Shown: piece by piece, positions 21,499 to 56,877 of the stretch
Numbering within the stretch: the first letter of the stretch is position 1
Layout: the number at the start of each line of letters is the position of its first letter
Virus record (IMG/VR): IMGVR_UViG_2974511964_000001
Location: 73,974 to 137,973 of that record
DNA: 64,000 nucleotides
Direction: 5' to 3' (one strand)
Source of the DNA: a virus
Lineage: Duplodnaviria > Caudoviricetes
The notes under the pieces: model-generated
Databases searched by the model: none
What the model was told of the DNA's origin: nothing
The model's input: only the letters and a program-made list of their open reading frames with translations
Translations under genes and position numbers: made by a program

Positions 21499-21566
21499 AA
21501 TAATTGACAAAGCATACCAAAAATGGTATGTTTAATACATATATTAAATTGAAAGGAGGTGAAAGT

Positions 21567-22703
21567 ATGTATAAAGCGTATAAAATTAGAATTTACCCTA
21601 ATAAACAACAAGAAGCACAAATATTATTAACTTTTGGACAGACTAGATTTGTTTGGAATAAAATGTTAGATATGCAATTAGAACGATACAGGAATGGTGG
21701 TAAGTTTGTTAACGCTTTTAGTATGGACTACCTATTGAAGCCACTGAAAAAAGAATATCCGTGGTTAACGGAGGCGCCTGCGCAAAGTCTACAACAGATA
21801 TGTAAAGACTTATCAGATGCTTTTAAAAATCTGTTTGAACATAGGGCAGGCAAACCCAAGTATAAGAGCAAAAAGTACCCAAAGCAGAGTTATAGATGCA
21901 ACCAAAGGATAATGTTAGTAGATGACCACCATATCAAGTTACCTAAACTAGGTTCTGTGTACTATCGCTCTGGTAGAGAAATTAAAGGTAAGATTAAAAG
22001 CGTAACTATCCGTAAATCTGCTACCAATAAATATTATGTTAGTGTCCTAACTGAAATAGAGATAAAACCTCTAGCGAAAATCAAGCAAGAGGTAGGTATT
22101 GATATGGGTGTTGCAGATTTAGTAATCACTAGTGATGGTAATAAATATAAAACAGTTAGATTTGACAAATTATTAGCTGATAAAAAACACTACTGGGAAG
22201 TACGATTGGCTCGTAGAAGGGCTTTAGCTAAGAAAGAAATAGCTTGGGATAAACACAATAATGTGCTGGAACCGAGAGAGTTATCAGATTTTAGTAACTA
22301 TATGAAAGCCAAGCTTATGGTAGCTAAGTATTCTGAGAAGATAGCTAACCAAAGAAAAGACTATCTTCATAAGATTAGTACCGAGCTAGTAAACCAGTAT
22401 GATGTTATCAAGATTGAAGATTTGAAAGCTGGTAATATGATGCGGAATCATAAGCTTGCTAGAACAATTGTTAATCAATCATGGAGAGAGCTACGTTTAA
22501 TGTTAGAATACAAATGTGAATGGTATGGTAAAGAGCTAGTAATTGTTAATCCATATAAGACCAGTCAAATCTGTTCTGACTGTGGCTATGATGACGGAAA
22601 GCATACTCTAGACGTTAGAGAATGGATTTGTCCTAATTGTGGTGCTAAGCATGATAGAGACATTAATGCTGCTAAGAACATTTTAAAGGAAGAAGCAAAG
22701 TAG
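21567..22703 (+). CDS. tnpB: TnpB RNA-guided nuclease, IS200/IS605 family, copy 2
   Basis: Close paralogue of 15972-17108; intact D/E/D RuvC triad; start at MYKAY after GGAGG. Confidence 0.92.
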   Translation: MYKAYKIRIYPNKQQEAQILLTFGQTRFVWNKMLDMQLERYRNGGKFVNAFSMDYLLKPLKKEYPWLTEAPAQSLQQICKDLSDAFKNLFEHRAGKPKYKSKKYPKQSYRCNQRIMLVDDHHIKLPKLGSVYYRSGREIKGKIKSVTIRKSATNKYYVSVLTEIEIKPLAKIKQEVGIDMGVADLVITSDGNKYKTVRFDKLLADKKHYWEVRLARRRALAKKEIAWDKHNNVLEPRELSDFSNYMKAKLMVAKYSEKIANQRKDYLHKISTELVNQYDVIKIEDLKAGNMMRNHKLARTIVNQSWRELRLMLEYKCEWYGKELVIVNPYKTSQICSDCGYDDGKHTLDVREWICPNCGAKHDRDINAAKNILKEEAK

Positions 22704-27294: not shown

Positions 27295-27733
27295 CAATAA
27301 TATCAATGACTGTCTAATAGGCGGTCATTTTTATTATGCCTAAAAGGAGGTGGGTATAATACTAACCCCCACTAGGTTATTTTAAGAACTATAATACTTA
27401 GTTGTAAACTGTCCCGATTTATTAGTAATTTTTTCAAAAAGTTTCCCCGAAAATTTTACCCCCACCTCAGTATCTGAAATTTGCAAATAATAAGTATAAT
27501 CCTGTCCGGATTTATGAGTAATTTTTTCAAAAAGTTTCTTTTAAAAAATTTATGGGCGTGCTGGTGGGTGAGCAATGGGCGTGCTAGTGTTGTGCTTGAT
27601 TGAGATACAAATACAGTTTTAACACCTTATATAGTAGGAAAAATAATTGAAACGATTTTAATAAAAAGTGTTGACACTAACAACGCCTAGCTATATACTA
27701 TAGTCATTCAAGTAAAGGAGAGGGCGCTACATT

Positions 27734-30700
27734 ATGAACGATAGAGAACCAGCACCAAGCAAAAAGCATAAGTTACCTAAATGGATAAAGTTACTATTAT
27801 GGATTGCAGCCTTTTACATTCTATGGAATGCAGGCAAGATGATAGTTGTTTACATTCTATGGTACCCGGGACGAATGCTATTAATGATAGGGTTAGCGTT
27901 ATTATTAAGTGGACTATTCAACAGACACTAGAAAATATCGAAATAGGTATTGACATGATATGTAATTGATGATATTATAAAATAAAAAAGTAAAGGGGTC
28001 TTACATTATGTTATTCTTAATCAAAATGTTTATTATCGGAGCAATTATTGGGAGTGTCGCGGGAGTTATTGAAGGGCTGATTAATGCTAATGTAAAAAAT
28101 GATGAGACAGCTAAAACGTTAAACCGATATGTTACTGCAATAACTTGGCTTGTGTACATTTATGTATGTATCTTTTAAGGAGGTATAATGATGATTATCA
28201 ATAAAAACAATGTCAGTAGTTTTAAGTTTCAACCCTATGACAACCGAACATATAACCGGCCTAACATTCTATACCGGCAAGCCACCGAGTTATATAACAG
28301 GGGCTTACAGTACGTTTTGAGGGGCTATAAACCTCTTAATGATAACGGGGTTATAATTGCTTGCAATCCTACACCGGAACAAGTAGTGAACTACGTTGAT
28401 ACTACTAATTATAGTAGCTACTGGCTAGAGATTGCACGGCCATTAGGTGGGAAAATTAAGGTTAAAAAAGTTTCATTATATGGTTGACTATAAAATAGTA
28501 TAATGCTATGCTATACACGTGAGATAGTCAAGAAACAAAATACTATTGTTTCACGTGAAACAACTGAAAGGAAGTAATACATTGTGAAATTCAAAGAGTT
28601 TATGAACCATGGTAAAACTGAAAACGAGATTAAGCAAGATATTTACAAGTATGGTAAGCAACTAGACACAATTGGAAAGCCGGCGAACAGCCATATGCAA
28701 CTTTACAAGGTACAGCAGTACGACAGCGGACGCCGGGCAGTTAACCTTGGCACTTATGACATGTATTTTCAGAACATTGCAGAACTAAATTTATATCGCA
28801 AACCCTTGGTCAAGTTAGTGAGTGATGGAATTGACTATGTGTTATATTTTCAGATTATTCAGCAGGCTATTTTAATGGATAACAAGCGAAATGTAAAACT
28901 AGTAACAAAACCATCATTCTCGGACTTTTTGGGGGCTGATGATGATTTAACAAATTTATTTCAAAATACGCTTGACAAGTTGCGAGAATAACCGTATGCT
29001 ATAGTTATTCAAGTAAAGGAGGTTATAGAATATGGCTACATTAAAACTAGTATTTATTATTGTAATTGCTATCTATGCTTACAAAAAGTATAAAGACAAT
29101 CAGAAATAAAGTTTTAAAAAGTTCTTGACAGGTTATCAATTAAGATATATAATTAAGACATTAAATAAGAAAAGAGATAATACATTATGAAAATTTTAGA
29201 CACATTCGAATTACAACCACAATTAGACCATGCACAATCATTCTACCGCAAGGCGTTCACTTTGCATAATAATGATGAAACAATTGACTTAAAATCTTAT
29301 GATACTATTGTTGCAAAATGGAGCATGGGCGAAGTTATTGTTAACGGGACTTATTCGGCCACTACGTTGCGTCACATTAAGGAATTTATTTATCAGACTA
29401 CTGGCGTTAGTGGTTTGACTAAAAAGGATATTGAAACGGATTATTACTTGCCATATAATTAATTAAAAAGCTGTTGACACTCTGCAATAGATATGATAAG
29501 CTAACTATAACAAATTAAGAAAGAGGTTTTATATTATGAAATTAGGAACAGCGATTGAACTTTTACAAGATGATACTTTTGACATGCAGGAAGCCTTTTA
29601 CTCGGACCTAGCTGGTGATGTATATGCTGAATACACGCTTAGGGTAACTGATGCAGAAACCCTTTTGACCGAGCTAGAACTTGACTTGTCTGGTATTGAT
29701 GACTATGACGCGTTACACGATGCGGTTGAGGACGAACTTGCTAATAGTTTTGATGGTGGCGTTGATGGTGTAGAAACAGTATAGGGCGCAACGGACTAGC
29801 TTAATAGGCTAGTTTTTTTATTAAACTGATTGACATTCGTACAAGTCTATGCTTTCGGTTCTAGCTGTGATTGTGGCTAATTATACCGGACTAGTTTAAA
29901 ATGGCTTAAAACGGCTTATATAACCTTGTAGGCATATGGTATAAAAATACAATTATTTAAAAATAAGGGTTGACAGCTTAGACTATTAAATGATATATTT
30001 TAATCATTGATAAGCAAGGAACAAGCAATAATGTTTCACGTGAAACATTTAAAATAAACGCTTGACAAGCCCTCAACTATCATGTATACTTAAGTCATTC
30101 AATAAGGAAAGGACGTTATAACATGCTTATTATCAGTATGGAAACATTACCTAAAATCATTGAGCTAGCACTTGCAATCTATGGGGGTATTAAGCTAGCA
30201 GACAAGTTTTTCCCCAGCATTAAGCAATCAAAATTCTTTGAAAGTTTTTTCAATTAAGCTATTGACATTTAAAAATAACAAGCTTATAATTAAGACATTA
30301 AATAAGAAGAGGAGTTAATACATTATGAGCAATGAAATTAGAGATGGCCTAATGAACAACGTGACACGGTATGATGATATTCAGGAATACGGAAAGTATA
30401 ACGCAGGGGCAACAACGGAAGACCTACAAGAATTGATTTATAATGGTTGGATTGCTGAATTGACACCGGGAACTTACAATGGTGCACTTGATAAGTTTGA
30501 CCGGGTCACTAAGCTAACTGATAATGATATTATTGGCGCTATTAAGTTGAATATAGCGGAAGATGACACAATAATGGAAACAATCGAATCTTTTTATTCC
30601 GGTGATAGTACCTCTGATATGCAAGCATTAGCTTATACGGAAATTTATGATGTGTTTACAATTGGTCAACGATTATATGTTGACATGGATAAATAAACCT

Positions 30701-31625
30701 GATATACTGTATTCAGTTAATAAATAAGAAAAGGAAGTTATAAACATGACAGCAAGTGAAAAATTAACACAACTAATTGAAAACGATAAGTTAACGGACG
30801 ACCAACTAGATAACTTGAATAACTGGGGTATTCTAACCGTATCAGAGTTGAGAGAATATTTAATTGACTTGATTCATAAATTAAAAAATGAAACTTATAG
30901 CGTTGACTATGAGGAAGCAGTTGTAGCATTATATGATTTACTTGATTATAGTGATGATTATTTTGTGATTTATGATGAGGCCGACGTAAGCGAATTAGAT
31001 TTTGATACCTTGATGGACGCCCTAGACACTGCACTAGATGTTGACTAGAAAAGAGGAAATTAAAATGAAACTATATAAATTATTAATTGCTGTTGTTGCC
31101 GGGGTTACATTGTCACTAGTTACCGCATATAATGCGGATGCTAGCAGGCCGAATTATGCTTATACCTTAACACGGACTAAGCAACACGCTGTTAAGCTTA
31201 CCAATACCGGACGTACTGAAAACATGTACCGAGTAACCGTTAAGACTGGTAAAGCTGTAAGATGGTATTACATGGCTTTAAATGCTAAACAGTCATGGCT
31301 AGTTAAACAGCCTCGTAAGTATAGTGTTACTGTTCGGCGTGTATCTAAAAGTGATGAGAAGCGCAATGCAGACCCACGTAACCACTTTACACCATTAGGA
31401 ATTAGAAACACTCAACGAACCGTATGGAATCGTTAGAATAGGATAATTGGAGGAATTTAAAAAATGGGATTTACTGAAGTTTTAACAATTGTATTTGTAG
31501 TATGTAAGCTACTAGGTATTATTACTTGGTCATGGTGGCTTGTATTGTTACCTGAAATTATTGCCGGTGTACTTTATATCAGTTTTGTAGGAATTACATT
31601 ATTCGGAGTGTTTAAACGCTACTAG
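27734..31625 (+). CDS. Small early genes: 27734-27931, 28008-28178, 28188-28487, 28584-28991, 29032-29109, 29187-29462, 29536-29784, 30123-30257, 30325-30696, 30746-31048, 31065-31436, 31464-31625
   Basis: RBS and mostly a dedicated promoter; four ORFs under 60 aa were read manually; several are acidic or membrane peptides. Confidence 0.6.
28547..28562. promoter_or_regulatory. parS: parS site (ParB/Spo0J-binding palindrome)
   Basis: Perfect TGTTTCACGTGAAACA. Confidence 0.85.
30032..30047. promoter_or_regulatory. parS: parS site (ParB/Spo0J-binding palindrome)
   Basis: Perfect TGTTTCACGTGAAACA. Confidence 0.85.
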
Positions 31626-31677
31626 AGTAATTAAGGACTAGTCTATCATGGCTAGTCTTTTTGTATGGTCATTGAAT

Positions 31678-31966
31678 AGCGTGTATATAAGCGTGTATAT
31701 AAGCGTGTATACGAGCCGTTATAGGTGCATGGCAGTATATAGGGCAATAGGTAGTGGGATAGCAATATATAGACAATGTACATTAGTACATACATACGAG
31801 CCTACAATACATACATACCTAAGAGGTAGACAGTACATACATATATACGAGCCTAGCAATACACACATATAGATATATATACGAGCCTAGCAATACACAC
31901 ATATAGATATATATACGAGCCTACAATATATAGTCAATAGGTAGGCAATACATACATACGAGCCTA
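31678..31966. repeat. Direct-repeat cluster: 12-bp AGCGTGTATATA tandem and six ATACGAGCC cores, including a 34-bp tandem unit
   Basis: ATACGAGCC at 31709, 31794, 31845, 31879, 31913 and 31956. Confidence 0.85.
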
Positions 31967-32788
31967 AGGTTCACCTATCTTACTAATAATATTACAGTAC
32001 ACAGCCAGCCTAGTTAGTTGACCAGCTAACCAATCACGTATACAACTAGCCGATTGCTTAATCACTGTACTAGCTAACCAATATGCAATCATATCATGCT
32101 GGTTTATATCAACTTATTATGGCTACATGTATAGGCTACCTATATACGGCTTATATATGGGCGTGTATTAACAGTTAGCCGTATATAGGTGTAATTATAC
32201 TGGTGGCAATATAAACGGCTTAGAATGGCTGCTAGGGGGCTTATATAGGGCGCTTATATTGGTAGCCTATTGCTGCATACAAAAATAACCCTATATACTT
32301 TCATATAGGGGTTGACCAGTGGCTAAATACATGTTATAATTAGTTATACAATAAAAGAGGAGGTAAAGATAAAACTACATAGTACGGTTACCATGGCTAC
32401 ATAGTCCAAAAGCCTTACTAGTTCTGTACGAGGAGTGTATACTTTTTTAAAAATTAACTTAACAATTCCCTAATCATATCCGGTATAGCTTAGACCGTGT
32501 AGCTGTGGTGCTGGTACTATTGAGCTGTTATTAACCTCCTTTACTTTATATACTAAGTATACAGCTATATGGGGTAAATGTCAACCTTTTTAGCAAATTA
32601 ATTTAAGCTATACCAATTCTAAAATAGGTCAATACTCACCATAGGCTACATCGACTATAAACGCCGGTATAATAACATTCCTTAAAATAACGATAAAACC
32701 GTACCAATTTATTTTGAAATAGTTGTTGACAGGTTACAAACTAGGGTATATACTATAGTCAATCAATAAGAAAAGAGGAAATTACATT

Positions 32789-34990
32789 ATGAAATTAGAT
32801 ATTAACGTATTAAACCTATTACTCAACAAGGAAACCATCCGCTTTATTGCTCAACCTGATAAGAACGGCTTCAGCAAGTCGGTAGTTGTTGGCTCGGTTG
32901 GTCATGTATACTCATTAGAGAGAGTAAGTAGCTTTGAACCATGTAGCAGTCTTACGAACAACAACGTTATCTTAGATGGGGTTAATAAGGATTATAAAAC
33001 CTTGATGGCGTATCTCAAAGCTAATAAATACGAATTATTTTAAATAGTTCTTGACAAGCCCGAGTATAGGGCATATGATTAAGACATTAAATAAGGAAAA
33101 GGAGTATTACATTATGGAAAAACGTGAAGCATTTGCAAGCATTTCAATTACTAACACAACGGCGCTACTTATTACAGACATCGACGAAGCAGGTGAAAAC
33201 GTGACCTATTGCGTCAGTGTACTGGACGAAGCACAAGCGCCTAAAAGCCACCATGCTAAAATTAGTTACACTATTAAAGATAACGAACCATACTTTAATA
33301 GCATTCTAGGACGAATGCATTTGTCTGAAGCAATGAAGATTACACCAGTTGAAATTTAATTTTGAAAAGTAGTTGACAGGTAGCCATATACCTGCTATAC
33401 TATAATCAATAAATAAGGAAAGCAGGAATTACATTATGATTTTAACAAGCATATTAGACACGGTAAATAGCATTAACGAAGCATGGTTACGGGAATCGTT
33501 AAAACGAGAAGCAACCGCTATTAATAACAGCACCGATACCCATATGGAAGTTTATAATAACAAGCCTAATCATTTTACAATTGTGGTTGATGATTCGCTT
33601 GAATACATGTTAGATACTACCGACTATACAGCTGAACTAACACACCACCCATCAATCTTTAATGATGACACGTTGGAAACCTTACTAGTTGCTATCGTCG
33701 ATGACAGTGATGATTTTGAAGATAAGCTAGCATTTGAAGTTATCATGGCTATTTATCATACACTATAAAGCAATTAGGGTTATCCATGGGGGTAGCCCTT
33801 TTATATACATCCGTTTATACGCCACTATAAGCTTGTTACGGACGTTTTATATTAGGGGTAGTATAATTACACTAGGCATAGTCTAAAACGTCTCACAGGG
33901 CTTGTATGGACGTTATAGAGGTATTGACACCACCATTATACTATGTTATGCTATATTAGAGTTGAAAGCAGTTGAAAGGTGGTACACTAATGACTAATCA
34001 TAACAAGCAACAACAAGCATATGCAACACCAGTTAAGGACAAGCTACGGCTATTAACAGGTAAAGTTATCACGCTTAATACCTATAACACTAACTACCCA
34101 GTTGAATTTGTCGAACCATTGTTATTCTATATTGCTTATGGCTTACCTGATAAACTAGACACTAACACATTGACTAGCTATTTCAATCAACACTACACCA
34201 AGGGTACACCACTTAATAAAGTAGGACTGCACTTAATTAACCCTCACTAGGCTATTTTGATAGCTATAAATTAATTTCAATTAGGTGGTTGCATTCAATT
34301 GCCTAATATGGTATATTTAAAGAGTAGAAAAACAAGACATCAACCGGCAAAATAAAATAAATTAAATTCAATTAGTTGTTGACATGTTAGAATATGAGGT
34401 TTATACTTAAGTCATTCAATAAGCAAAGGGGTTTTATACATGATTAAATTAGAGAACACGATTAAAGTTTTTGTACCAGTAACTAACAATGACGGGGTAA
34501 AGGTTGACTTAAACCCTGAAATTAAAGCCGCCTTAACGGTTATCGGGGGCGCCACTACCTATACAGCCCGAGGCAATTGGACGGACAATAACAGGCTGTA
34601 CACCGATAACATTAACGTTATGCAGTTCAATACTATGGACTTTAACAAGGACACTACTCGGGTTATCAGTGACCTAATTCGTGCAATCTTTATTAAAGCC
34701 GAGCAACTAGCCGTTAGCGTTGAAATTAACGGGGTTCTATACATTTTAGAAAGTACTGAAGATATTAAAGAATTATTTTAAAATAGCTGTTGACAACTTA
34801 AAAAGTAGGGTATATACTTAAGTCATTAAATAAGAAAAGGAAGTTATACATTATGACATCACGCAAAAACAACTGCTCAACTATCAAGGCCACTAAGGGT
34901 AACCAAGTTCGTTACTTGTCTACACGGGACGAAACTAAAGGATTAGACATTCAATTAGACTTATTGGAGTGGACACTAACAGCTATCTAA
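32789..34990 (+). CDS. Small early genes: 32789-33043, 33114-33359, 33436-33768, 33990-34250, 34440-34781, 34853-34990
   Basis: Promoter + RBS cassettes, most with the TACATTATG leader; terminator at about 35007-35037. Confidence 0.6.
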
Positions 34991-35916
34991 CAATATTATA
35001 ATTATTAACGGCTATCCATTAGGACGGCCGTTTTTTGTTGTCTATAATAGCATATCATGCACAATGCTATATAACGCATTGTAAGCCGTTCTAATCCATT
35101 TTAAGCTAGGCCGGTGTAATTACACTAATATATAGATTAACACTCTTACACGCTATGTATGAAGCATACAGCTATACTAACGATATTATTAACACGTTAC
35201 AGCGTGCTACAATAAAATTATATTATAATTCGTGTATAAATTAACACGGTATATGCAATCCGCTATAATGTTACATTTATATTATTTTTATAAAATTCCC
35301 TTGACATTGTCGGCGTATAGTGTTATGTATCACACCCCCTCCCCCCTGTCAAGCCCCATACATAGGGGTACCTTGTCTACCTGCCTCGCTCAACCTTAGG
35401 CACAAATATTTTAGCCCAAAATTTTAGCATATTATACGGTATACTGAACACTATAATGAACTCCCATATGCACTGCCATATACCCTCCCCCCATTAAATA
35501 AATGAGCAGCTAATTCTAAATACCGGTATATAAACAAATCCTAAAAACGCCCCCATAAAATTTTTGGCCTAATCAAGGCTATCGTAAATAAAAAGACTGC
35601 TCAATTAAGAGTAGCCTTTAGAATACTAATATTGAATTGTACTTTTATCAGTATTATTACTCTGCAACTTTGGTTAGCAGCGGCATCCCATCTGAGTGAG
35701 ACATAATAACTAATTTATTAATACCTTCATAGTCAGAATTAATTGTAAATGGCCGGCTAATACAAAAAGTATTTCCATCCATATTCTTAACCATAGCAAA
35801 TTTATCTTTACTATCTTTACCAACGATTTTAGCAACAGTGTCTGAACTACAAATGTTCTCTTTTGTGTAATAATCCTTAAATGTCATAATTACTCTCCTT
35901 TTGTGTCTTTAACAAA

Positions 35917-36270
35917 TTATTTAACTAATGTGAACCCTAAGCTATCCACAAGATAGCCTAACTTCTTTATTTCGATATCTTTATTAACAACAGTCCAATC
36001 ATCTGTGTTAACAATTGAAACGAACGAGGGACTTTCTTGGATTACTATAAAGTAAGCATCCCCTTTTCGTAATTTACTCCCAACCCCCAGTTCAGAATAC
36101 TCTTCCCAACTTTGAGTCATATCCGCCCTGCATGGCAGGTAGTATTTGCCGTTGTTATAAACAGCCTGGTTAAAAGCATCTAAATGAATATAAGAACCTT
36201 TAGGCCAATTAACCCCACGTACTCTTGTACCATTCATTAATACCATTTCTAGAGCTTCATCAAATTCCAT
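35917..36270 (-). CDS. Tad2/DUF2829-like anti-defence protein, paralogue 1
   Basis: MEFDEALEMV..G.RVRG.NW...ADMTQSWE. Confidence 0.6.
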   Translation of the reverse strand: MEFDEALEMVLMNGTRVRGVNWPKGSYIHLDAFNQAVYNNGKYYLPCRADMTQSWEEYSELGVGSKLRKGDAYFIVIQESPSFVSIVNTDDWTVVNKDIEIKKLGYLVDSLGFTLVK

Positions 36271-36272
36271 AA

Positions 36273-36713
36273 CTAGTTATCCCCCTCTGTATTAGCTAAT
36301 CTATTGTGATGCTTCCTAGCAACATTCCAAACCTCATCAAGTTCATTCTTGTCAGACTTACTAGCTATCGAAAGGCTCTGAAAATTCAACATACTAACAA
36401 GTTGTCCCTCATCAATACCTTTGGCTATTTCAACGAATGTTTTATCATCTAGGATTGCATAAGTACCGTCAGCTTCCTTAATCAACCGATACTTACTGGT
36501 GCTACCATATTGAGTTAATAGTGCACCTGCTGATGGAATATCAGCAATTTCCCAATCTGCAATAAAATCTTTCTTACTGAGACTAAACGGACTTCCAGTA
36601 TTACCTACAACATCACCATCATCATTTAGCATAATATAACCATATCCTGTTGAGTTTACTCGTGTTACCTTTTTACCGTCTAACATAGCTTGTAATGCTT
36701 CACTAAATTTCAT
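36273..36713 (-). CDS. Tad2/DUF2829-like protein, paralogue 2
   Basis: MKFSEALQAMLDGKKVTR...DFIADWE. Confidence 0.65.
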   Translation of the reverse strand: MKFSEALQAMLDGKKVTRVNSTGYGYIMLNDDGDVVGNTGSPFSLSKKDFIADWEIADIPSAGALLTQYGSTSKYRLIKEADGTYAILDDKTFVEIAKGIDEGQLVSMLNFQSLSIASKSDKNELDEVWNVARKHHNRLANTEGDN

Positions 36714-37001
36714 AGTTAATCCTCCTAGATTAGTTTTATTCTTTACAAGTCCGGCCATGAAACCACATGAGCGTATCCATTTCCTCGTGAGGGCTGTCTA
36801 GCTTGGTTTCAACTATACGGATTCCAAAATATTCAGCATCTTCAAAGCAAGAAATATAACGACTTGCCTTTTCCTTCGTAGAAAACACACCTAGAATACC
36901 ACACATTAGGTTTGTATGGTCTTCGTTGTAACTTTCATATTCACATTCTTGATAAACAAGGTATACTGTCATATTGGACCCTCCGTTATTAATTATAGAT
37001 T

Positions 37002-37730
37002 CTAGTCACCCACGTTTAGGAGAGTGTACCCCTCAACCCTAAGCAGTATCTTGAGCATATCTTCTCTAATGTGTTCCCTTACTACCATATAGGTTTCTGT
37101 ATTAACAATCGAATAGGTGTTATCCGGGGAAACAACTATCTTATAGAAGTTGCCGTTATTATGCTTTAAAACAGTACCCGCCATAGAGTAACTGTAGTGC
37201 CAATCATGGTACGTACTAGAATCGCTAAAAAGATAGGTGTCTCCATTTTCATCAATAAAGTCGTTGTTATCAGCATCTAGCATAATATATTCATTCGGTT
37301 CCCAGCAGTCGGCTCTAACTTTTTTGCCCTTCAGCATAGCGCGCAACGCCTCATTAAAATTCATACTAATTTCTCCTTGTACTGTAGGACTGTCTGCTAT
37401 GAATCCCAGCCCATATACTACATCATCTACATAAGTATTAGGAATATCCTCAATTAAAGTTGCCCAACATGACATACTAACAATAGAATAGGTGTGGTCG
37501 TCTGCTAGTACAATAATAAAATCATTGCTGTTGCAGTGCAATATCATCCCAGACTTATCGACTACTCCCATACCCGTTCCAAGCTCATATGTGCTTCTCT
37601 CTACTAGCTTAGGTCCAGAAGAAGTCTTAATACCTAAAGGATTTTTGAAGGAATCAATAGGATGGTCGCAATGCTTGTTCAATACCTTGTCAAAATTCAG
37701 CTTATTACTAGTAATTTCATTTAACTTCAT
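37002..37730 (-). CDS. ORF whose C-terminal half (from ATG 37364) is Tad2/DUF2829-like paralogue 3
   Basis: MNFNEALRAMLKGKKVRADCW with its own AAGGAG RBS inside the ORF. Confidence 0.6.
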   Translation of the reverse strand: MKLNEITSNKLNFDKVLNKHCDHPIDSFKNPLGIKTSSGPKLVERSTYELGTGMGVVDKSGMILHCNSNDFIIVLADDHTYSIVSMSCWATLIEDIPNTYVDDVVYGLGFIADSPTVQGEISMNFNEALRAMLKGKKVRADCWEPNEYIMLDADNNDFIDENGDTYLFSDSSTYHDWHYSYSMAGTVLKHNNGNFYKIVVSPDNTYSIVNTETYMVVREHIREDMLKILLRVEGYTLLNVGD

Positions 37731-37748
37731 GGCTTATCCTCCTATTGA

Positions 37749-38108
37749 CTAATTACTATATTTAATTACTTTCATACCATACGATTTAATAACATCATCA
37801 AGTCTATCCTTATAGATATCACCAATAAATACTCTCCAAGTTTTAATATCAACAAGGTCTAACCTGCCACGGTTATTCCAAACAACCCGATACCGGTCTT
37901 CTAGATGGCTTAGCAGCGCTCCTACAGTAACTTTAGGCTGGTATAGGTTCCACTCTGCTTCATATAGTCTATCACCAATAGAATATGGAAAACCCTGTTC
38001 ATCTACAATTTTGTTATCAACCAACTCAATATAGTCATGTCCAGCCCAGGTTTTACAACAAACCCTTTTACCTTCCAACAGGCATTGCAATGCTTCACTA
38101 AAAGTCAT
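37749..38108 (-). CDS. Tad2/DUF2829-like protein, paralogue 4
   Basis: MTFSEALQCLLEGKRVCCKTW...EAEW. Confidence 0.6.
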   Translation of the reverse strand: MTFSEALQCLLEGKRVCCKTWAGHDYIELVDNKIVDEQGFPYSIGDRLYEAEWNLYQPKVTVGALLSHLEDRYRVVWNNRGRLDLVDIKTWRVFIGDIYKDRLDDVIKSYGMKVIKYSN

Positions 38109-38418
38109 AATAATTCCTCCTTGATAGTATTATCGCTAACATAGATGTTTGAAGAAAGCAGTGTTGGCGAATACGTTCTAGCTAGCTGAGTAAGTGTGTT
38201 CCTTACTACTGAGACATCAATAGCAGAGACCACTGCGACATCTAGTGTAATGTCATAAACAGTATCTCCATTTTTAGGAAATGAATAAGAAGTTAAATAA
38301 TGCGGGTGGAACCTTACAATAGTGTCTAAAATGCTTGTAAATTGGCTTTCGGTTAAATTAATAAACCCTAAAGACGCATGTACTAAAAATTTTGATTTTA
38401 CTTCACTTGTTTTCATGC

Positions 38419-38595
38419 TTAGCTCTCCTTTGACTTATTGTCTTTCTTGTATGCTCTGTACTCTTCTTGACTTAAGCCTAGTTTAACTCGTTCAGCTAGA
38501 TTAGTCAACTCCTTTTTAAACTCGTCACTTTCGTTATACGCTAGTACCTTTCTGGCAAGTGGGTCGTTCTTATTGACCATGTCTTTTAAACTCAT
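38419..38595 (-). CDS. 58-aa hypothetical protein (paralogue of 42722-42886; not in ORF track)
   Basis: MSLKDMVNKNDPLARKVLAYNESDEFKKELTNLAERVKLGLSQEE. Confidence 0.7.
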   Translation of the reverse strand: MSLKDMVNKNDPLARKVLAYNESDEFKKELTNLAERVKLGLSQEEYRAYKKDNKSKES

Positions 38596-39552
38596 AGGGA
38601 TTTATCCTTGTTATATAACGCTTCACGAGCTTCATCTGCCAGTTTAATTTGATTAGTCAAAACTTTATCTTTGACATCCGGATTGTCAGGTCTAATGCCT
38701 GCCTTTAAAGCCATCTCAATAATACCGCCCATATCTTCTGAGCTAAACTCCCACGGTTCATAGACGTCTTCCATGGTATACTTAGCAAAGTCAGCCATAT
38801 ACTCGTAAAATTCCTGCATACTAACAGGGACCCATTCTTTTAAATCTTTCTCATGCTGCTGTTCTGCAAGTTCATTATTAACTTTGTCTAGCTGTTTGTT
38901 TAACTTCCTCTTTTGCTCTAATAGTTCACTATCCGTTTTAGTCATTATTGATTTCTCCTTTACCAAAGTCCTAGGTATTCCCGATAGGGATATGGGCTAT
39001 CCTTGTGTTTTGAAACATCAACAGATTCTCCAAACTTTTCACAGGCTCTATTAACACTATCTTTTAAGAATTTCTCAAAAGACCCATCCCTCAAAGTAAA
39101 GTCACTAGCTGGGAACTCTGAGGGTATATCATAACTATTTAGCTTCTTCAAGTAATTAATAACCTGTCTAAAGTTTTCACATTTATATATGTCATCTTTA
39201 AGCTTGTTTAAATATGCTACTTGGGATTCGTGAGCCTGAAACGCTATATGCTTTAATTCTGGGATAGTCCATACATTCATAATTAAACCGTATTCATCTC
39301 TAATGTATAAGTAGGTGACCGTACTATTATGCCTATTCATAAAATCTAAATATTTCTCATTCTTGTCACCTTGATACCAGTCTTTAGCTAGTTCTTCGTT
39401 ATATCCCTGGTCAAAGTTATATATAACCCCTTGCGCAGCATTCGACCAAAGACACTCTTCCCCAAATTTAGAGCGCCCTAGTACCTTTTCACCCCAATAA
39501 TTTAAACCATTAATAAGTGCTTCTTCATCTATTTGCTTCATTTTTAGTCCTC

Positions 39553-39921
39553 CTAGTCAGTAGAGCCATCATTGATAACTTCCATACCCAATGATTTAAT
39601 AGTGTCATCAATTTTATCCATATGAATATCTCCGATAAATACTCCCCAAGTCTTAGTATTAACAATGTCTAGTTTGCCCTTTTTATTGAAAACAACCCGA
39701 TATTGGCTTCCGTAATAGCTTAGCAGTGTTCCTACAGTAACTTTAGACTGATATAGTTCCCAACTAAGCATAAGGTCTGTCTTGTCAATAGTGTAGATGT
39801 TCCCAAGGCTATCAATAATATGGTCATGGGAACCTATCATGATATAATAATTGTCCCACCAGTAAATTTGTCTAACTTTATTGCCATCTAATAATGCATC
39901 CATTGCTTCACTAAATTCCAT
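39553..39921 (-). CDS. Tad2/DUF2829-like protein, paralogue 5
   Basis: MEFSEAMDALLDGNKVRQIYW...TDLMLSWE; C-terminal domain close to that of 37749-38108. Confidence 0.65.
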   Translation of the reverse strand: MEFSEAMDALLDGNKVRQIYWWDNYYIMIGSHDHIIDSLGNIYTIDKTDLMLSWELYQSKVTVGTLLSYYGSQYRVVFNKKGKLDIVNTKTWGVFIGDIHMDKIDDTIKSLGMEVINDGSTD

Positions 39922-41398
39922 AATAATCTCCTAATCAACATCCTCTAAAGCTACTTTGTTCCAGTCAATCGCGACGTCATCACGACTTTTTAGTTGTTCA
40001 ATTTGTTCGGGCGAAAAATCATCTATAACAGAAGTTAAATCCTCATCTACTAAACGTCCTAAATATGCCCGTTGACCCCAACTAAAAACATCAACATGAA
40101 GGTAACTGTTTTCATCCGTTGAAACTACCTTTACTCGCTTTCTAATAACGCCCTTACGCTCTGAAATAGGGGTTTTAGCATAGGCTACAATAGCATCAAA
40201 CAAGTCGTCACTTACACCAGACATATAGTGTAAGTCAACCATATTCTGATATTCTTCACTAATTGCTGCAACTGTATCACCGCCGATTTCACCAGATACC
40301 CTAGTTTCACATTCTCCTACTTTTACAATATAACCCGGCGTCTTGGTTACTATTTTAATAAATTCTTCTGTCTTCATACTAATCCTCCTTACCTTTCCTA
40401 AGTAACTTGGTTGCATCTACAAAATCCACATTGATTGTCTCTGGGATTATCCTAAGTCTGACGAAATTAGTAATAGTCCATACTGTTCAAACTGTTTAAT
40501 AAGTTCTTCAAGTGTGTTCTCATTATAGTCAGCAGCATTAATCAGCGTATTCCAAGCATAGGGAGATGACACTTCTTTACACGAAGCGTCATCATCATAG
40601 TCTTTACCTACTACATCCTCATAATAATCAGCCCATGCTTCTCCCTGACTATTAGCTGCTATTAAGGCATAGTAGTCGTTTTCTGGTTCATTAAACTCAT
40701 AATACTTATGTTTAATTTCTGTTGTCATTTTCATATCCGTCTATCCTTATTAAATAATAATAGTATATTAAAAATTGTTTGTCAAGTCTAAAATAACTTT
40801 CTACCACACTTAGGGCAATAGTTAGCTGGAGTACTAGCGAACCCCTTGCTAGTAGACATTACTAGGTCAAAGTATTTAATTCCACAACTTGTATCTGAGT
40901 CTATCCCAAGGTCCCAGCCTGCTTCATCAACCATGTTCTTATAAGGCATATGACAATACTCACATGTTTCTTGTTCTAGAACATTCAATTGTTTTATCAA
41001 AAGAGACTTATATGGGTTATCATCATTAGTGGCTTCAATCTTAGCTTTTAAATCAGTAATACTACTTGTCATTTTCTTACACCCCTAGTTTGTATATTAT
41101 TCAGTAAGATAGTTTCATTTTCGTCCCTAGTACCATTTAGCTTCCCCAAAGATAAGTTCTTTTGGTGCTATTAAATCTAGTTCAACATTTTGAGTCTTAG
41201 CATATTCCTCGTAGTATTTATAGTTAGCCGTAATATGCTTAATTTCATCAGTAGTAAAGCCACTACAGAACAATAGCGCTGAGTGTTTGCCTTGATAGGC
41301 ACTAGTTTGCATCACCTTAAACATCTTATTCCATAATTCAGGCTTAACCTGCCGTTCTCGGTAAGTCTTAGCAATTATTCTTAGTTGTTCTCCGCTTG

Positions 41399-41710
41399 TC
41401 AACATGAACTATCCTCCAAATCGCTGTTCTTAACAAACACGCCGTCAACCATCTTGCCAGTTCGATTCTTAATTGTGTTGTATGCTTCTTTGACACATTC
41501 ATCTAAATGCAAACCATTTTGCAATGCATAGATTGTCAATACCACGAAAATGTCGCCAATGCTATCAATCTGTTTGTCTCGATAACCTTTATTGTGAGCT
41601 TCGGCAAGCTCACCCATCTCTTCTACTAGTTTAATTAACTGTTTATCAGGGTTCGTTTTATCTAGACCACGATGAGTGGCCCATGATTCGATTGATTTAT
41701 AATAATCCAT
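41399..41710 (-). CDS. MazG-like nucleotide pyrophosphohydrolase
   Basis: KLVEEMGELA..DSIGD..AYNTIKNRTGKMVDGVFVK. Confidence 0.85.
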   Translation of the reverse strand: MDYYKSIESWATHRGLDKTNPDKQLIKLVEEMGELAEAHNKGYRDKQIDSIGDIFVVLTIYALQNGLHLDECVKEAYNTIKNRTGKMVDGVFVKNSDLEDSSC

Positions 41711-42024
41711 TACTTATTTACCTCTTTACTTGTAGTTTTTAATAATTCTAGCTTTTTAATAATATCTTCATAACCTATATAGTTTAAAGAGTTACCCTGT
41801 TCATAGTCTAAAAATCTTGATAAGCTTAATCCTGTATACCTAGCTGCTTGCTTCTGGCTAATAGATAACTCTGTTTCTAGCTGAATTATATGCTGTGAAT
41901 AAACAAATTGTTTACTGTTAGCATACATACCACTATCATTTAGAAACTTAGCAAGTCTCTTGGCTGCCTTTCTATCACGCTTGCGCTCACTATTCATTGG
42001 TATCACTATCCACATTATAGCCAT
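41710..42024 (-). CDS. HTH DNA-binding protein
   Basis: ISQKQAARYTGLSLSRFLDYEQG. Confidence 0.6.
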   Translation of the reverse strand: MAIMWIVIPMNSERKRDRKAAKRLAKFLNDSGMYANSKQFVYSQHIIQLETELSISQKQAARYTGLSLSRFLDYEQGNSLNYIGYEDIIKKLELLKTTSKEVNK

Positions 42025-42349
42025 GCTTCTTAACTAGTTCAATATCATTAGCATCATACAATTCATAGCCTTTAGCTAGTAAGCGTGAAACGTAGATATA
42101 GTTATAGAATACTGCCACAGCGATTTGAATAATCAATACTGTAATTGGACTAACAGCATAACCGGCTACACTTAATACACAGAATACGCCAAATGCCCCT
42201 AACCAATCTCCCCGGAATAGTGGTGCAAATACTCCAAAAAAGAATGTCGTCCATGAAATACCTAGTGGGGATGATTTAATCTTACCGTTCTTCTTGTCAA
42301 TAAATTTAACCTTGTGTCCTGCGTCTTGAAATAATGTTGTAAAGTTCAT
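41990..42349 (-). CDS. Membrane protein (DUF2628-like)
   Basis: GISWTTFFFGVFAPLFRGDW..YNYIY..LLAKGY. Confidence 0.6.
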   Translation of the reverse strand: MNFTTLFQDAGHKVKFIDKKNGKIKSSPLGISWTTFFFGVFAPLFRGDWLGAFGVFCVLSVAGYAVSPITVLIIQIAVAVFYNYIYVSRLLAKGYELYDANDIELVKKHGYNVDSDTNE

Positions 42350-42721
42350 AATGTTTTGCCTCTTTCTTTATTTAATGGCCTAATTTTATACCTATTGTTA
42401 CTGCTTGTCAACCAATATATGGCTTTCCTGTAAAAAGTTGTCCTAGTACATACAGAGTAAACAGTGCAAATGCAAGCACAACCAATAGTAGTATAATATC
42501 ATTTAGCTTGCTTATCCACCTCTGACTAGCTAGCCAACTCCTAATCTTAACAATACCTGAATGTGGCACAATGTACCTAAATGCCATCCCCAGTAACTTT
42601 AACATCCATGCGAAAGCCCAGAATAAAAATGCTGCCCCGGCTATAGCTAGGATTCCAACAAATATATCTATAATAATTATCATGGTTACAATATAACCCC
42701 CTTGTTAATCATTTTGTAGAT

Positions 42722-42886
42722 TCATTTTTCATTAGACTTTTTATACTTTTTAAAATCTTCTTGGCTTAACCCTAGTCTAACTCTTTCTGCTAAAAGGTCT
42801 AACTCCTTCTTAAACTCTTTGCTGTCTTGATAAGCTAATACTTTCTTAGCTACGGGGTCGTTTTTATTAACCATATCTCTAAACAT
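42722..42886 (-). CDS. 54-aa hypothetical protein (paralogue of 38419-38595; not in ORF track)
   Basis: MFRDMVNKNDPVAKKVLAYQDSKEFKKELDLLAERVRLGLSQED. Confidence 0.7.
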   Translation of the reverse strand: MFRDMVNKNDPVAKKVLAYQDSKEFKKELDLLAERVRLGLSQEDFKKYKKSNEK

Positions 42887-43235
42887 CTAACCATCCTCTA
42901 TTATTTAACAGAAATCCATAGTCCATGATTACTAAGCTCAACTAAATAGCCTAATGCATGAAATATGCTAACAATCCATTTTATATTAGTTTTAGAGTTC
43001 AATTTATCAATATCTACTAATGTCACAGGGTTACCACGAAAAACAGCATTATCAATAACCTTTTTCATGATGTAGCTAAAGTCAGACTTAGTTTCGTCAC
43101 AAGGACTTTTATCAATTAGGCGCTTAGCATCTTTAGCCAGATACTCACGAGCCTCAGCATTAGACATGATTGAACTAATTCCCTTATAAAGTACACTATT
43201 GTCAAACTCGACTTCTTTGTATTCTCGCATATGTC

Positions 43236-43694
43236 TTAGCCCTCCTCAATTTGATAACCATCTAGCCACGCACGGACAAACGTTTCAGAATTGTCTTCCA
43301 TATACTCAGCTAGATTGTCGTCTCTAATGAAATGATGCGTAGCGTCCCAAATGTCATCACCTTGTGACTTCATGTCAGCAATATATTCAGCAACATAATG
43401 TGGAATTACTGGTAACTCGGCATACTGTTGTTTGAACTCTTTATCGGCCATAACTTTAATCTCGTCTGTTTCATTAACAACCCAATCACCAATTTCAAAT
43501 GAAACTTCATTATCGTCTGGAAAGGCATCAGGTTCTGGTTCAAAATCGTCAATCAATATTGAATAATAAGCTGGCTCACCTGTTAGTGCATCAACTAAGG
43601 AATCTGGCATAACTTCATAGCCAAATAGACTTGTCTGACTCCCATCAAATTTTAGGGCTTCTATTGGTTTGTCATTTCTACGATAAGCTCTCAT
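43236..43694 (-). CDS. DUF1642-containing protein
   Basis: PVIPHYVAEYI...FVRAWLDGY. Confidence 0.7.
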   Translation of the reverse strand: MRAYRRNDKPIEALKFDGSQTSLFGYEVMPDSLVDALTGEPAYYSILIDDFEPEPDAFPDDNEVSFEIGDWVVNETDEIKVMADKEFKQQYAELPVIPHYVAEYIADMKSQGDDIWDATHHFIRDDNLAEYMEDNSETFVRAWLDGYQIEEG

Positions 43695-43696
43695 TT

Positions 43697-44131
43697 TTAT
43701 TTGCCACCCTTCATAAGACTAGAATTTTTATAAATATTACCAATAACTTCAAATTGAAAGCTCCAAGAGTCATACAGGCATGGTTCAAGTACATGTGCCC
43801 TTACTGGTTTTAAAAACACACCTGGTCGCCCAAGTGAATCTTATGAAACTACTTCATTAACCATTGGCTCCATTGTTAATTCACTTGCATCAGACCACAC
43901 ATTGACGATATCGCCAATATAAATTCCCTTACCATTAACATCTCTCAGTCCGGTAAACTGTAACAGTTCAACATCATCGTTCTTAATGTCCCAAGTTTCG
44001 TTTTTCCTATTTACAATAACGTTAACAGAGCTTGGTGTCCCTTGGGTATCGCCATTCTGGATTGCTGATACATAGTCAGCCATTATCTTCCTGTACCCGT
44101 TCCAAGCTTTGAACCTAATTACTCTCGTCAT
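43697..44131 (-). pseudogene. YopX family gene with an internal in-frame stop
   Basis: IRFKAW and QFTGLRD..IYIGDIV, then TAA at 43841-43843; the same frame continues to FEVIGNIYKN and stops at 43697. Confidence 0.75.
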
Positions 44132-44193
44132 ATTAAACGCCTCTTTCCTTTCTATAATAAAATTATATCACCACTGGTATGTTCTTGTCAAGT

Positions 44194-45048
44194 TTATTTT
44201 ATGTTGTTTGTTTTTCTCTTCATCAACTTTTCAACTTTGGAGGCCACAATGTCGCCTAGTTTGTCTCTGGTGGTCTCTACTGCCTTGTTATCGGCGTTTG
44301 TGAACCAGTAACCCTTGGTTTGGCTTAGTCTGTCTTTAATAACGCTGTTAATATTCCCTAAGTTAACCTCAAGTTCCCGACTCGCTTCACTCTGCGATTC
44401 AAACCGTGAAGCCTCTTGTGTCTTCAAATTGATTGCAAACACGCCACCTTTGAAATTAATATCAGCCTTGATTTTTCGTAATTTATCTTTGTCGGCTTCA
44501 ACGCCGTTGCCATTGTCTTCTGTGAACCAATAGCCACCAGCCGTTTTATATTGGCCTTTAATAACTTTAGTAATATCTGGTTGGCTAACCTCAAGTTCCC
44601 GACTCGCTTCACTTTGCGACTTGAACCTAAACACTTCTAATGTGTTTAAGTTGATTGCATACAAGGAATGGCCTCTCGATTCTGTGCTTGACACTCCGTA
44701 TTTTTCTGTGTATTGGCGATTGTACGAAGCGTCACACCATTCAAGATTATCAACATTATTGTTAGTTCTATTGCAATCCTTATGGTTCACCTGTGGCAAA
44801 TTATCAGGGTTCGGAATGAACGTTTGGGCAACGAGACGGTGGACTTTTATAGTGACCGTTTTACCGTTTGCGTTGAACGATACTTGCATATAGCCATCTT
44901 TATTACGCCATTGTTTTAGAATATGACCTTGTATGATACGTGTTCCTCTTTTAGTTGTAACCACTCTATCTAGCGTACGAACATCACCGAACGGACTAAC
45001 CTCGATAAACGAAAACTCCGGATAAGTTTTCCAAACTTCAATTTTCAT
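44194..45048 (-). CDS. NUMOD4-HNH homing endonuclease with C-terminal NUMOD1-like repeats
   Basis: EVWK..VS..G.VR; VHRLVAQTF..VNHKD.NRTNN.VDNLEW; twice F.SQSEASREL. Confidence 0.9.
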   Translation of the reverse strand: MKIEVWKTYPEFSFIEVSPFGDVRTLDRVVTTKRGTRIIQGHILKQWRNKDGYMQVSFNANGKTVTIKVHRLVAQTFIPNPDNLPQVNHKDCNRTNNNVDNLEWCDASYNRQYTEKYGVSSTESRGHSLYAINLNTLEVFRFKSQSEASRELEVSQPDITKVIKGQYKTAGGYWFTEDNGNGVEADKDKLRKIKADINFKGGVFAINLKTQEASRFESQSEASRELEVNLGNINSVIKDRLSQTKGYWFTNADNKAVETTRDKLGDIVASKVEKLMKRKTNNIK

Positions 45049-45397: not shown

Positions 45398-46357
45398 CTA
45401 AATCATATTCTTAACTTTTAGTGCTACATACTTACGAGCTTGTGCCCGTGATACCCGAATTAATTGTTTAATCTCTGCTGGTAACTCCGGCGATTCTTCA
45501 ATAGCATCCAGCAGCACCTCAGTCGCCACCTTATTAGTATTACCATTACGCATCCAGTCAAATGACAACTCACTAGGAAGTTCGCCCTCATCCTGACCTT
45601 CTAATACCTTCTTAGATACTCGGGCTAAGGTTACATTATTATTAATCCACTCAGTTAAGCTAATAGACTCTGAGTGTTCCTTAACGTGCTTGGACTCTTT
45701 AAAGGTAGCATTGACTAGCTTAATCCGCAAGGGGCCTGTAGTAGTCTGTGAAGTAGGTACTGTCTTGCTTAAATCAGTAACTACAATACCTTCCATATTA
45801 CCACTGGCTGAGTAATTAGACTTATCAGAATATTTAGCTTGAATCTTAGGTAAGTCATTGAACCCAATTCCAGTAACGTTATCCTCTAATAAAGGTGCCA
45901 TTTCAATTCCATCTACACCATATAATACATCCTTATATAGCTTTTCAGCCTCATGATATCCTAGATACTTATGAGACGCTTTATCGTACACGTCAAACAG
46001 ATACCACTTGTGATAGTATTCATCCTTATACTGTACTCGGTGCTTAGTTAACCATTCGCCAAACACAATGTAGTTATCTCCAATGTGCTTTAAATAATCT
46101 GCGTTATCATTAACGAATCCATAGAATCCATTTAGTTTTTTATCAGCGTCTAATTCCCCTTTATGAGAGTAAGACTTAACCTCGCCATCAAGTACCTCTA
46201 CAGATGCATTAGAACCATCCAGCTTTTCAGTAATAACTAAAGTGTCTTCCGGTTCAATAGTAATAACTTCTTTGTTCTCATTAGATAACTTATTTTCAAA
46301 CAATTGTTCATTTTCATAAGCATTAATCTTTTGGAATTTACGCATATTGGCATTCAC
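45398..46357 (-). CDS. RNA ligase (Rnl2-like nucleotidyltransferase)
   Basis: TEKLDGSN, FGEW, LFDV, EGIVV. Confidence 0.8.
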   Translation of the reverse strand: MNANMRKFQKINAYENEQLFENKLSNENKEVITIEPEDTLVITEKLDGSNASVEVLDGEVKSYSHKGELDADKKLNGFYGFVNDNADYLKHIGDNYIVFGEWLTKHRVQYKDEYYHKWYLFDVYDKASHKYLGYHEAEKLYKDVLYGVDGIEMAPLLEDNVTGIGFNDLPKIQAKYSDKSNYSASGNMEGIVVTDLSKTVPTSQTTTGPLRIKLVNATFKESKHVKEHSESISLTEWINNNVTLARVSKKVLEGQDEGELPSELSFDWMRNGNTNKVATEVLLDAIEESPELPAEIKQLIRVSRAQARKYVALKVKNMI

Positions 46358-55950: not shown

Positions 55951-56021
55951 AGCGGATAGTCGGATTTGAACCGGCGACAGCTGCTTGGAGGGCAGTTATG
56001 TTACCACTACACCATATCCGC
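55951..56021 (-). tRNA. tRNA-Gly(TCC)
   Basis: Cloverleaf; anticodon loop CCTCCAA (C at 33); no encoded CCA. Confidence 0.8.
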
Positions 56022-56174
56022 ATTAAACGTAAGGAAAAGCGTCCAAACCCTTTAAGTTATGTCAAACATAAAATCCTAATAAGGTTTATGTCTCATAATC
56101 CGTTATGCCACTTACACTGGTTAGGTTGGGCGTTTACACTTAGTCTATGGTAACCAACCATAACACGCATATTA

Positions 56175-56245
56175 TGCCTCGTACTAGAATTGAACTAGTG
56201 ACTTCTGTTTACAAGACAGATGTTTTACCACTGAACTAACAAGGC
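56175..56245 (-). tRNA. tRNA-Thr(TGT)
   Basis: Anticodon arm TCTGT-CTTGTAA-ACAGA. Confidence 0.85.
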
Positions 56246-56286
56246 GTTACACTAGAAATAATCTAGTATACAGTATGTTGGCGCTA

Positions 56287-56402
56287 TGTGCTTGGTAGGG
56301 ATTTGCACCCTACATGGTATCTTGACTTCAGGGTTGCGACCCCTGTCTACGCCATTGAAATACCGCTACGCCCGCTATGTCTACCTATTCCATCACAAGC
56401 AC
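56287..56402 (-). ncRNA. tRNA-like RNA with an expanded, non-canonical anticodon/variable domain
   Basis: Acceptor GTGCTTG/CAAGCAC-A, Leu-type D arm and T arm intact; about 60 nt nested insert between them. Confidence 0.6.
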
Positions 56403-56801: not shown

Positions 56802-56803
56802 TA

Positions 56804-56877
56804 TGCTCTCGGTGAGATTCGAACTCACACTGTGTGGCTTCTAAGACCACTATCTCTGCCAATTGGATTACGAGAGC
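56804..56877 (-). tRNA. tRNA-Leu(TAG) with short variable loop
   Basis: GTGGT-CTTAGAA-GCCAC; 5-nt variable region. Confidence 0.8.

Follow-up and report, generated by a model that had tools for sequence, protein, structure and literature searches.

The 64,000-nucleotide stretch of DNA analyzed here (the window) comprises bases 73974–137973 of a phage record with a length of 137,973 bp and a completeness of 98%, which represents Lactobacillus phage Iacchus (Herelleviridae), an L. plantarum phage whose nearest relatives are Semele, Bacchae, Lpa804, and LP65, likewise Herelleviridae phages of L. plantarum. In the BFVD structure library, the corresponding proteins are listed under the name of Iacchus. 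Between positions 35917 and 39921, the window carries 5 minus-strand genes, referred to below as paralogues A to E, which share a common two-domain module of approximately 118 residues combining a minimal core of the Tad2 type with a small β-barrel. These genes are old, nonredundant paralogues of a two-domain family (PHROG 6670), and the reading with the best support is that their products are nonenzymatic binders of Tad2 sponge ancestry, probably made early. We consider it plausible, with a probability of roughly 0.4, that they still act as retuned sponges for host immune signals.

The modules of the 5 paralogues can be aligned over their entire length, with pairwise identities of 22% to 31% and 13 invariant columns (M1, F3, E5, A6, G14, V17, Y27, I28, G41, W55, G64, L67, and I99). 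A profile constructed from the 5 copies and compared with the 138-kb genome of their own phage retrieved exactly 5 full matches (E-values of 2.9e-47 to 4.7e-53), and the likeness among the modules, as judged from these sequence comparisons, is far beyond chance. All 5 also match 117–119 of the 120 positions of PHROG 6670, with E-values ranging from 1.6e-34 for B to 5.5e-41 for D (3.9e-40 for A, over its full length; 2.3e-39 for C, in 2 stretches; and 1.8e-40 for E). The original prediction, made from the sequence alone, of 5 related open reading frames (ORFs) or domains in this region is borne out by their shared strand, the whole-module alignment, and the full-length matches to PHROG 6670, and the additional C-terminal domain that it proposed is indeed present in every copy. 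The N-terminal motif given there (MxFxEAL..xxGxxV..W) stands in part: the shared start is real, with M1, F3, E5, A6, G14, and V17 invariant, but the Trp following GxxV is found in only 4 of the 5 copies and is replaced by Ser in B.

The nature of the N-terminal domain was revealed by structural modeling of paralogue D (37749–38108, minus strand; 119 residues). The AlphaFold2 model, for which 33 family sequences were aligned, has a mean predicted local distance difference test (pLDDT) score of 93.4 and consists of 2 domains, residues 1–57 (nucleotides 37938–38108) and residues 58–119 (nucleotides 37752–37937). The former comprises a helix (residues 3–11), 3 strands (16–18, 27–30, and 33–36), a second helix (46–50), and a last strand (53–55), and matches SPO1 Tad2 (8wje_A) with a Z score of 10.0 and a root-mean-square deviation (rmsd) of 1.3 Å over 57 aligned residues, at 26% identity. 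ModTad2 (9eib_A; Z 9.9), HgmTad2/AcrIIA7 (8kbi_A; Z 9.9), and SptTad2 (Z 9.6) were matched to a similar extent; over the Tad2 structures as a whole, the Z scores were 9.3–10.0 and the rmsd values 1.3–1.8 Å, with 56–58 residues aligned, and for the SPO1, Myroides, and Hgm Tad2 proteins the rmsd was 1.3–1.5 Å. All 24 PDB chains matching the model of D with a Z score of at least 8 are Tad2 entries, the next match having a Z score of 6.1. Foldseek assigned almost every Tad2 chain listed a probability of 1.00, with E-values that are weak given the shortness of the domain. As modeled, residues 1–57 of D are a minimal Tad2 core composed of α1, the Trp loop, a short antiparallel sheet, α3, and the terminal "DW" strand, and the Tad2/DUF2829-type fold that had been predicted for the array is thus recovered by structure prediction.

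The sequence evidence for a relationship to Tad2 agrees with the structural comparison but is thin. At the gathering cut-off of the DUF2829 profile (PF11195; 25 bits), paralogues C (27.4 bits) and D (26.0 bits) are recognized, whereas B (21.5 bits), A (19.2 bits), and E (only 13.3 bits) remain below it, so that the assignment of the copies to DUF2829 by a profile hidden Markov model (HMM) held for 2 of the 5. The matches extend from profile positions 1–31 up to 1–61 of 73. Alignment of the family profile with SPO1 Tad2 using hhalign yielded a probability of 83% (E-value of 8.5e-6) over the first 32 residues, from α1 to the Trp loop, and a sequence search of the PDB reached Tad2 at an E-value of approximately 0.1.

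All 5 copies contain both domains but differ in what surrounds the module. Paralogue A (35917–36270; 117 residues), preceded by a GGGGGA Shine–Dalgarno sequence, consists of the minimal Tad2-like N-terminal domain and the β-barrel C-terminal domain. Paralogue B (36273–36713; 146 residues) carries a 27-residue C-terminal tail behind the module, and the Trp of the putative pocket is changed to Ser. The start of B is most likely the ATG at 36713, because a strong AGGAGG Shine–Dalgarno sequence precedes this codon and not position 36758, up to which the listed ORF extends. In paralogue C (37002–37730; 242 residues), a 122-residue N-terminal extension precedes the module, which occupies residues 123–242 (nucleotides 37002–37364); an AGGAGG sequence is located before 37730, and an AAGGAG sequence is also found before the internal Met123. 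The module of C is modeled with pLDDT above 90 and the extension with pLDDT below 50, and no orthologue of the extension was found in the 4 related phages. Within the extension, residues ~60–111 (37398–37553, minus strand) correspond to an extra copy of the C-terminal domain, which was detected with the C-domain HMM (domain E-value of 2.9e-8), matches the own-genome profile in part (E-value of 1.7e-5), and is predicted to form β-strands at residues 61–85. Paralogue E (39553–39921; 122 residues) lies at the upstream end of the array.

Other genes are interspersed among the paralogues. Between B and C lies a minus-strand gene for a 78-residue DUF7336 protein (36736–36972; PF24024, E-value of 1.4e-15; phrog_15305, E-value of 8.6e-26), which is not a member of the family; when placement only was compared, Semele was seen to carry a 237-bp gene annotated as a "hypothetical protein" at the matching position. 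Four further ORFs, located between 38105 and 39541, have no family assignment and are unrelated to the 5 paralogues. Directly downstream of A is a minus-strand ORF of 76 residues (35657–35887), a homologue of which makes up the C-terminal part of a fusion with a family member in another phage (P0013; 203 residues), hinting that the ORF is functionally linked to the family. It has no Pfam or NCBIfam match and was discarded as a candidate relative of the C-terminal domain, to which it bears no detectable relation.

By a domain HMM scan of the relatives of Iacchus, Semele carries 6 copies, compared with 4 in each of the phages Bacchae, Lpa804, and LP65, both domains being present in every copy. 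In the maximum-likelihood tree, the Iacchus copies fall into separate, well-supported orthologue groups that span the genera Harbinvirus and Salchichonvirus, indicating that the duplications are old and that all of the copies were kept. Group B is represented in all 5 phages compared, group E is common to Semele, Bacchae, and LP65, and the orthologues of A in Semele and Bacchae are 95–96% identical. The ratios of nonsynonymous to synonymous substitution rates (dN/dS) for orthologue pairs range from 0.14 to 0.63 (0.14–0.38 for A, 0.31–0.37 for B, 0.21 for D against Semele, and 0.39–0.63 for E), from which we conclude that the 5 ORFs are real genes and that the selection acting on them is purifying, if fairly relaxed. 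In the alignment and the tree, the copies are old, diverged, and unlike each other at the positions lining the Tad2 pocket, consistent with the diversification that had been proposed for the array.

A tblastn search of a phage collection with paralogue D (E-values up to 1e-3) retrieved relatives from L. plantarum phages only, including single copies in 6 siphoviruses, and in a collection of 5.8 billion proteins the family amounts to no more than 33 clusters at 90% identity. A wider search produced 852 matches at E < 1e-3, among which the minimal N-terminal domain occurs alone (~60 residues), as tandem duplicates (4 inspected), or fused to ResT/TelK or Clp_N. Two large repeat proteins matched in the search of representatives, P0142, with weak matches to Pfam β-repeat families only, and P0150, were treated as unproven relatives.

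The C-terminal domain of D is modeled as a small barrel, with 4 longer strands (residues 65–98), then a helix, and finally a short strand. Its best structural matches were ORF041 of phage 37 (Z 5.3) and the Spindlin, Spt5-KOW, and Tudor barrels (Z 4–5). All of these are within the stated background range of the tool, and a family assignment based on them was dropped; the domain is best described, from the model, as a Tudor/KOW-like small β-barrel with no specific relative. It matched no Pfam or NCBIfam family and gave no usable match in the ESM Atlas, and the family alignment contains no conserved polar residues suggestive of catalysis. Fusions of Tad2 with other sponge domains, such as Tad2-Acb4 and Tad2-Sequestin, are frequent (10.1101/2025.07.12.664507). 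In the 5 proteins, neither Acb4 (PF13876) nor Sequestin (PF21825) was matched at E-values up to 1. Likewise, a scan of the genome revealed no PF13876, only a single subthreshold match to PF21825 (13.7 bits), located outside the 5 proteins, and no PF11195 gene beyond the array. The protein P0123, considered as a possible stand-alone version of the C-terminal domain, was rejected, as it looks like a truncated two-domain protein. Some members of group B, including LP65 orf5 (L011, 3523–4071) and P0007, have a long C-terminal tail, which in P0007 resembles a further barrel-type repeat. Taken with the extra copy of the C-terminal domain in protein C, the group B tails suggest a barrel that moves as a module among members of the family.

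The expression context was examined at the level of promoter sequences. The nearest σ70-type promoter upstream of the array is located at 40757–40785 on the minus strand (TTGACA, a 17-nucleotide spacer, and TATTAT), and 3 more minus-strand promoters start further upstream, at 41402, 42411, and 44191. Near-consensus σ70 sites, with at least 11 of 12 matching positions, number 27 in the window against 3.8 expected from Markov simulations. The presence of near-consensus promoters upstream, with no convincing terminator between the 4 minus-strand promoters and the array, suggests that the array is transcribed early by the host polymerase. On the plus strand, 15 near-consensus sites (TTGACA, 17 nucleotides, TATxxT) are found within ~8 kb, at 27671–35269, before many small ORFs. 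The plus-strand segment at 27671–35269 and the minus-strand segment at 40757–44191 look like an early region of the host-takeover type, converging at ~35.5 kb.

To compare the putative pocket of the paralogues with that of Tad2, residues were mapped with a MAFFT sequence alignment to SPO1 Tad2, which is consistent with the structurally aligned ranges but is not a residue-level superposition. In the order A to E, the position of SPO1 Trp25 is occupied by W, S, W, W, and W; Asn26 by P, T, E, A, and W; Trp73 by Y, F, Y, Y, and Y; Ser76 by C, S, S, G, and D; Thr78 by A, K, S, R, and T; and Asp79 by D, D, S, L, and D. The set of residues contacting glyco-cyclic ADP-ribose (gcADPR) is accordingly kept in part, with Trp25 retained in 4 of the 5 copies, an aromatic residue at the position of Trp73 in all 5, and Asp79 in 3. 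By this alignment, the aromatic floor and often the Asp appear to have been kept and the polar rim not, the latter varying from paralogue to paralogue. In the wider family, an equivalent of Trp25 is found in at least 90% of members, and a basic "GKKVR" stretch is conserved across the family. The loop of an active Tad2 homologue, no. 79, reads "WS" rather than "WN" (Table S2 of 10.1101/2025.08.24.671296).

In the mechanism that we favor, the paralogues would oligomerize and thereby create a pocket between protomers at the position of the Tad2 pocket. This pocket would be formed by an aromatic floor (the equivalents of Trp25 and Trp73), the basic "GKKVR" stretch, and a polar rim of varying composition among the paralogue groups, and each paralogue could sequester a different host immune signal derived from nucleotides. 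The C-terminal domain might take the place of the α2 dimer interface that was lost, or it might contribute a further binding site. The ligands known for the Tad2 family are varied and include 3'cADPR, His-ADPR, N7-cADPR, cUMP/cCMP, and cyclic dinucleotides (10.1101/2025.08.24.671296; 10.1101/2023.11.15.567273). The bolder form of this proposal, close to that of the original prediction, is that the array is a multi-specificity sponge battery, with pockets retuned to different host signals, some of which would be signals so far not known from Lactobacillaceae, and with the barrel serving either as a new oligomer builder or as a second sponge domain, the latter by the "guilt by fusion" logic that revealed Sequestin. 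We regard such a battery as unlikely in this full form.

Several observations weigh against a sponge function. The β2–β3 insertion, through which Tad2 dimerizes and which contains its cyclic-dinucleotide site, is, as far as alignment and model can tell, missing in all 5 copies: the ~25 residues of the SPO1 Tad2 insertion stand opposite a gap in every copy in the MAFFT alignment, the model of D has a tight hairpin (strands 27–30 and 33–36) in their place, and the 57 aligned residues of D stretch over 85–103 residues of the Tad2 chains. In SPO1 Tad2, helix α2 of the insertion makes the V-shaped dimer (10.1101/2023.05.01.538930), and in HgmTad2, the pocket for cyclic dinucleotides is made up by the insertion (10.1101/2023.11.15.567273); with the insertion and its α2 missing, a tetramer of the Tad2 type cannot be assumed for the paralogues. 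Within the pocket, Asn26, which contacts phosphate and hydroxyl groups in both SPO1 and Hgm Tad2, is lost from all 5 copies, Ser76 and Thr78 are mostly replaced, B lacks the Trp, and C and D lack Asp79. Homologue no. 80 (73 residues, with a "WP" loop), the sole insertion-less protein in the panel of Hadary et al., inhibited none of the 4 testable defense systems (Table S2 of 10.1101/2025.08.24.671296). In addition, the minimal domain forms part of large proteins that contain ResT/TelK or Clp_N, in which it is unlikely to serve as a sponge. On the host side, 251 species genomes of the Lactobacillaceae were scanned, 22 of which have TIR_2 domains and 10 of which have CD-NTase (SMODS) domains; the occurrence of these domains speaks for the sponge reading, and the low frequency of TIR and CD-NTase systems in this family speaks against it. 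Finally, the two-domain build of the paralogues resembles that of a virion protein, gp164 of Staphylococcus phage 812 (PMC12886913).

The partial retention of the gcADPR pocket, the loss of the insertion, the inactivity of the minimal homologue no. 80 in the published screens (10.1101/2025.08.24.671296), and the residence of the minimal domain in large multidomain proteins would also be accommodated if the paralogues were early host-takeover or accessory proteins, in which the Tad2-like and barrel domains bind protein or nucleic acid, the fold having been reused and the sponge function lost. The early-type context of the array fits such a role, and the Tudor, Spindlin, and KOW barrels that the C-terminal domain resembles, at Z scores of only 4–5, are binders of peptides or nucleic acids. 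However, the ligand-contacting Trp and the basic "GKKVR" stretch are still conserved across the family, many relatives with the minimal domain are tandem duplications (as seen in the 4 inspected), which fits a pocket formed between 2 copies, and no data point to any protein or nucleic acid target, leaving this explanation doubtful in our view.

It is improbable that the paralogues decorate or cement the virion in the manner of gp164, the stopper decoration protein of phage 812, for which hhalign detected no sequence homology (probability of 1.8%, E-value of 0.028, family against the gp164 alignment). In gp164, an N-terminal α/β globular domain is followed by a C-terminal β-barrel, and the protein forms homodimers on the neck of the Herelleviridae virion (PMC12886913). 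It is the top Foldseek match in the PDB for the whole model of D (8qkh_S; E-value of 0.057, 125 columns, template modeling score of 0.32), and its gene, too, has small genes for neighbors and is remote from the structural module. In the structural comparison, which aligned the N-terminal domain and did not treat the C-terminal domain separately, gp164 matched D with a Z score of 6.1 (rmsd of 2.2 Å, 57 residues), a value within the stated background range of the tool, against approximately 10 for Tad2. No homologue of gp164 was found in the Iacchus genome, its homologues being found in Staphylococcus phages only. Furthermore, it would be odd for a protein that decorates the neck to come as 4 to 6 diverged paralogues, single copies of the family are carried by L. 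plantarum siphoviruses, the neck of which differs, and the host σ70-type promoters upstream of the array suggest early rather than late expression. Mass spectrometry of Dionysus virions, in which 4 virion proteins (PMC6669764) and 12 others were detected, is too shallow to decide on the paralogues.

The remainder of the window contains further genes of potential interest. At 11793–14183 on the plus strand, it encodes a 796-residue protein combining an AAA_33 kinase, a Metallophos phosphoesterase, and a T4-type RNA ligase, which looks like an RNA repair enzyme of the Pnkp type, and a second RNA ligase (PF09414) is encoded at 45398–46357 on the minus strand; together, the 2 proteins suggest tRNA or RNA repair as a counter-defense. 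Three genes of the TnpB/IS605 OrfB type (15954–17108 and 21504–22703, plus strand; 59176–60366, minus strand) contain HTH_OrfB_IS605, OrfB_IS605, and Cas12f1-like TNB domains, and their closest relatives are in Lactobacillaceae genomes, at 59–72% identity. ARAGORN identified a cluster of 9 tRNA genes at 55951–58416 on the minus strand (Gly, Thr, Leu, Asn, Ile, Pro, Phe, and 2 Arg); in the published table, Iacchus has 7 tRNAs (PMC6669764). Other recognizable products are a 568-residue protein with a glycerophosphodiester phosphodiesterase domain (1592–3298) and a TelA-like protein (20410–21498), both on the plus strand, and, on the minus strand, a MazG/PRA-PH-like pyrophosphohydrolase (41399–41710) and an HNH/NUMOD homing endonuclease (44194–45048).

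Part of this picture was already known, namely PHROG 6670 as a family and the likeness to Tad2 of at least protein C, the automatic UniProt name of which already conveys the Tad2-like, sponge-type reading; unnamed paralogous families of hypothetical proteins in these phages have also been remarked on by Kyrkou et al. A literature search found no account of the architecture combining a minimal Tad2 core with a barrel, of the expansion of such proteins to 4 to 6 old paralogues per genome, or of a pocket rim specific to each paralogue in proteins of this kind. Neither the 5 Iacchus sequences nor Lactobacillus was found in the supplements of Hadary et al., of which Table S1 was covered in part. 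Tad2 is among the main phage sponge families that soak up bacterial immune signals, and many ligand specificities have evolved within it. A single lineage with 4 to 6 old, diverged Tad2-like paralogues, which are devoid of the canonical insertion and joined to a new partner domain, would constitute a natural panel that could show how a sponge pocket gets retuned and whether the minimal Tad2 core still works. The same panel could be used to seek signaling molecules of the defense systems of lactic acid bacteria, which is relevant to food fermentation and probiotic strains. Should the proteins turn out to be structural or protein-binding instead, they would set a limit on reading "DUF2829" as "sponge."

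Among the closest known families and systems is PHROG 6670, the 5 copies being members that show no differences from it; the family has no functional annotation and thus offers no clue to function. The phage 812 protein gp164 resembles the paralogues in the order of its domains, the first of which has a Tad2-like topology, in coming from a Herelleviridae phage, and in being encoded outside the structural module, but it differs in its length of 152 residues and in being a proven virion component, and a profile alignment, itself nonsignificant, places no Trp of gp164 opposite the pocket Trp. The characterized Tad2 proteins (SPO1 gp34.65, HgmTad2/AcrIIA7, ModTad2, and SptTad2) have the same core fold and the same N-terminal motif and are likewise small phage proteins, SPO1 also being a Herelleviridae phage, whereas the Iacchus copies add a β-barrel of ~60 residues and belong to sets of 4 to 6 paralogues per genome in place of a single gene. 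The Tad2-Acb4 and Tad2-Sequestin (PF21825) fusions offer a parallel in architecture, with a Tad2-type domain and a second small domain joined in one phage protein, the partner in the Iacchus copies being a β-barrel.

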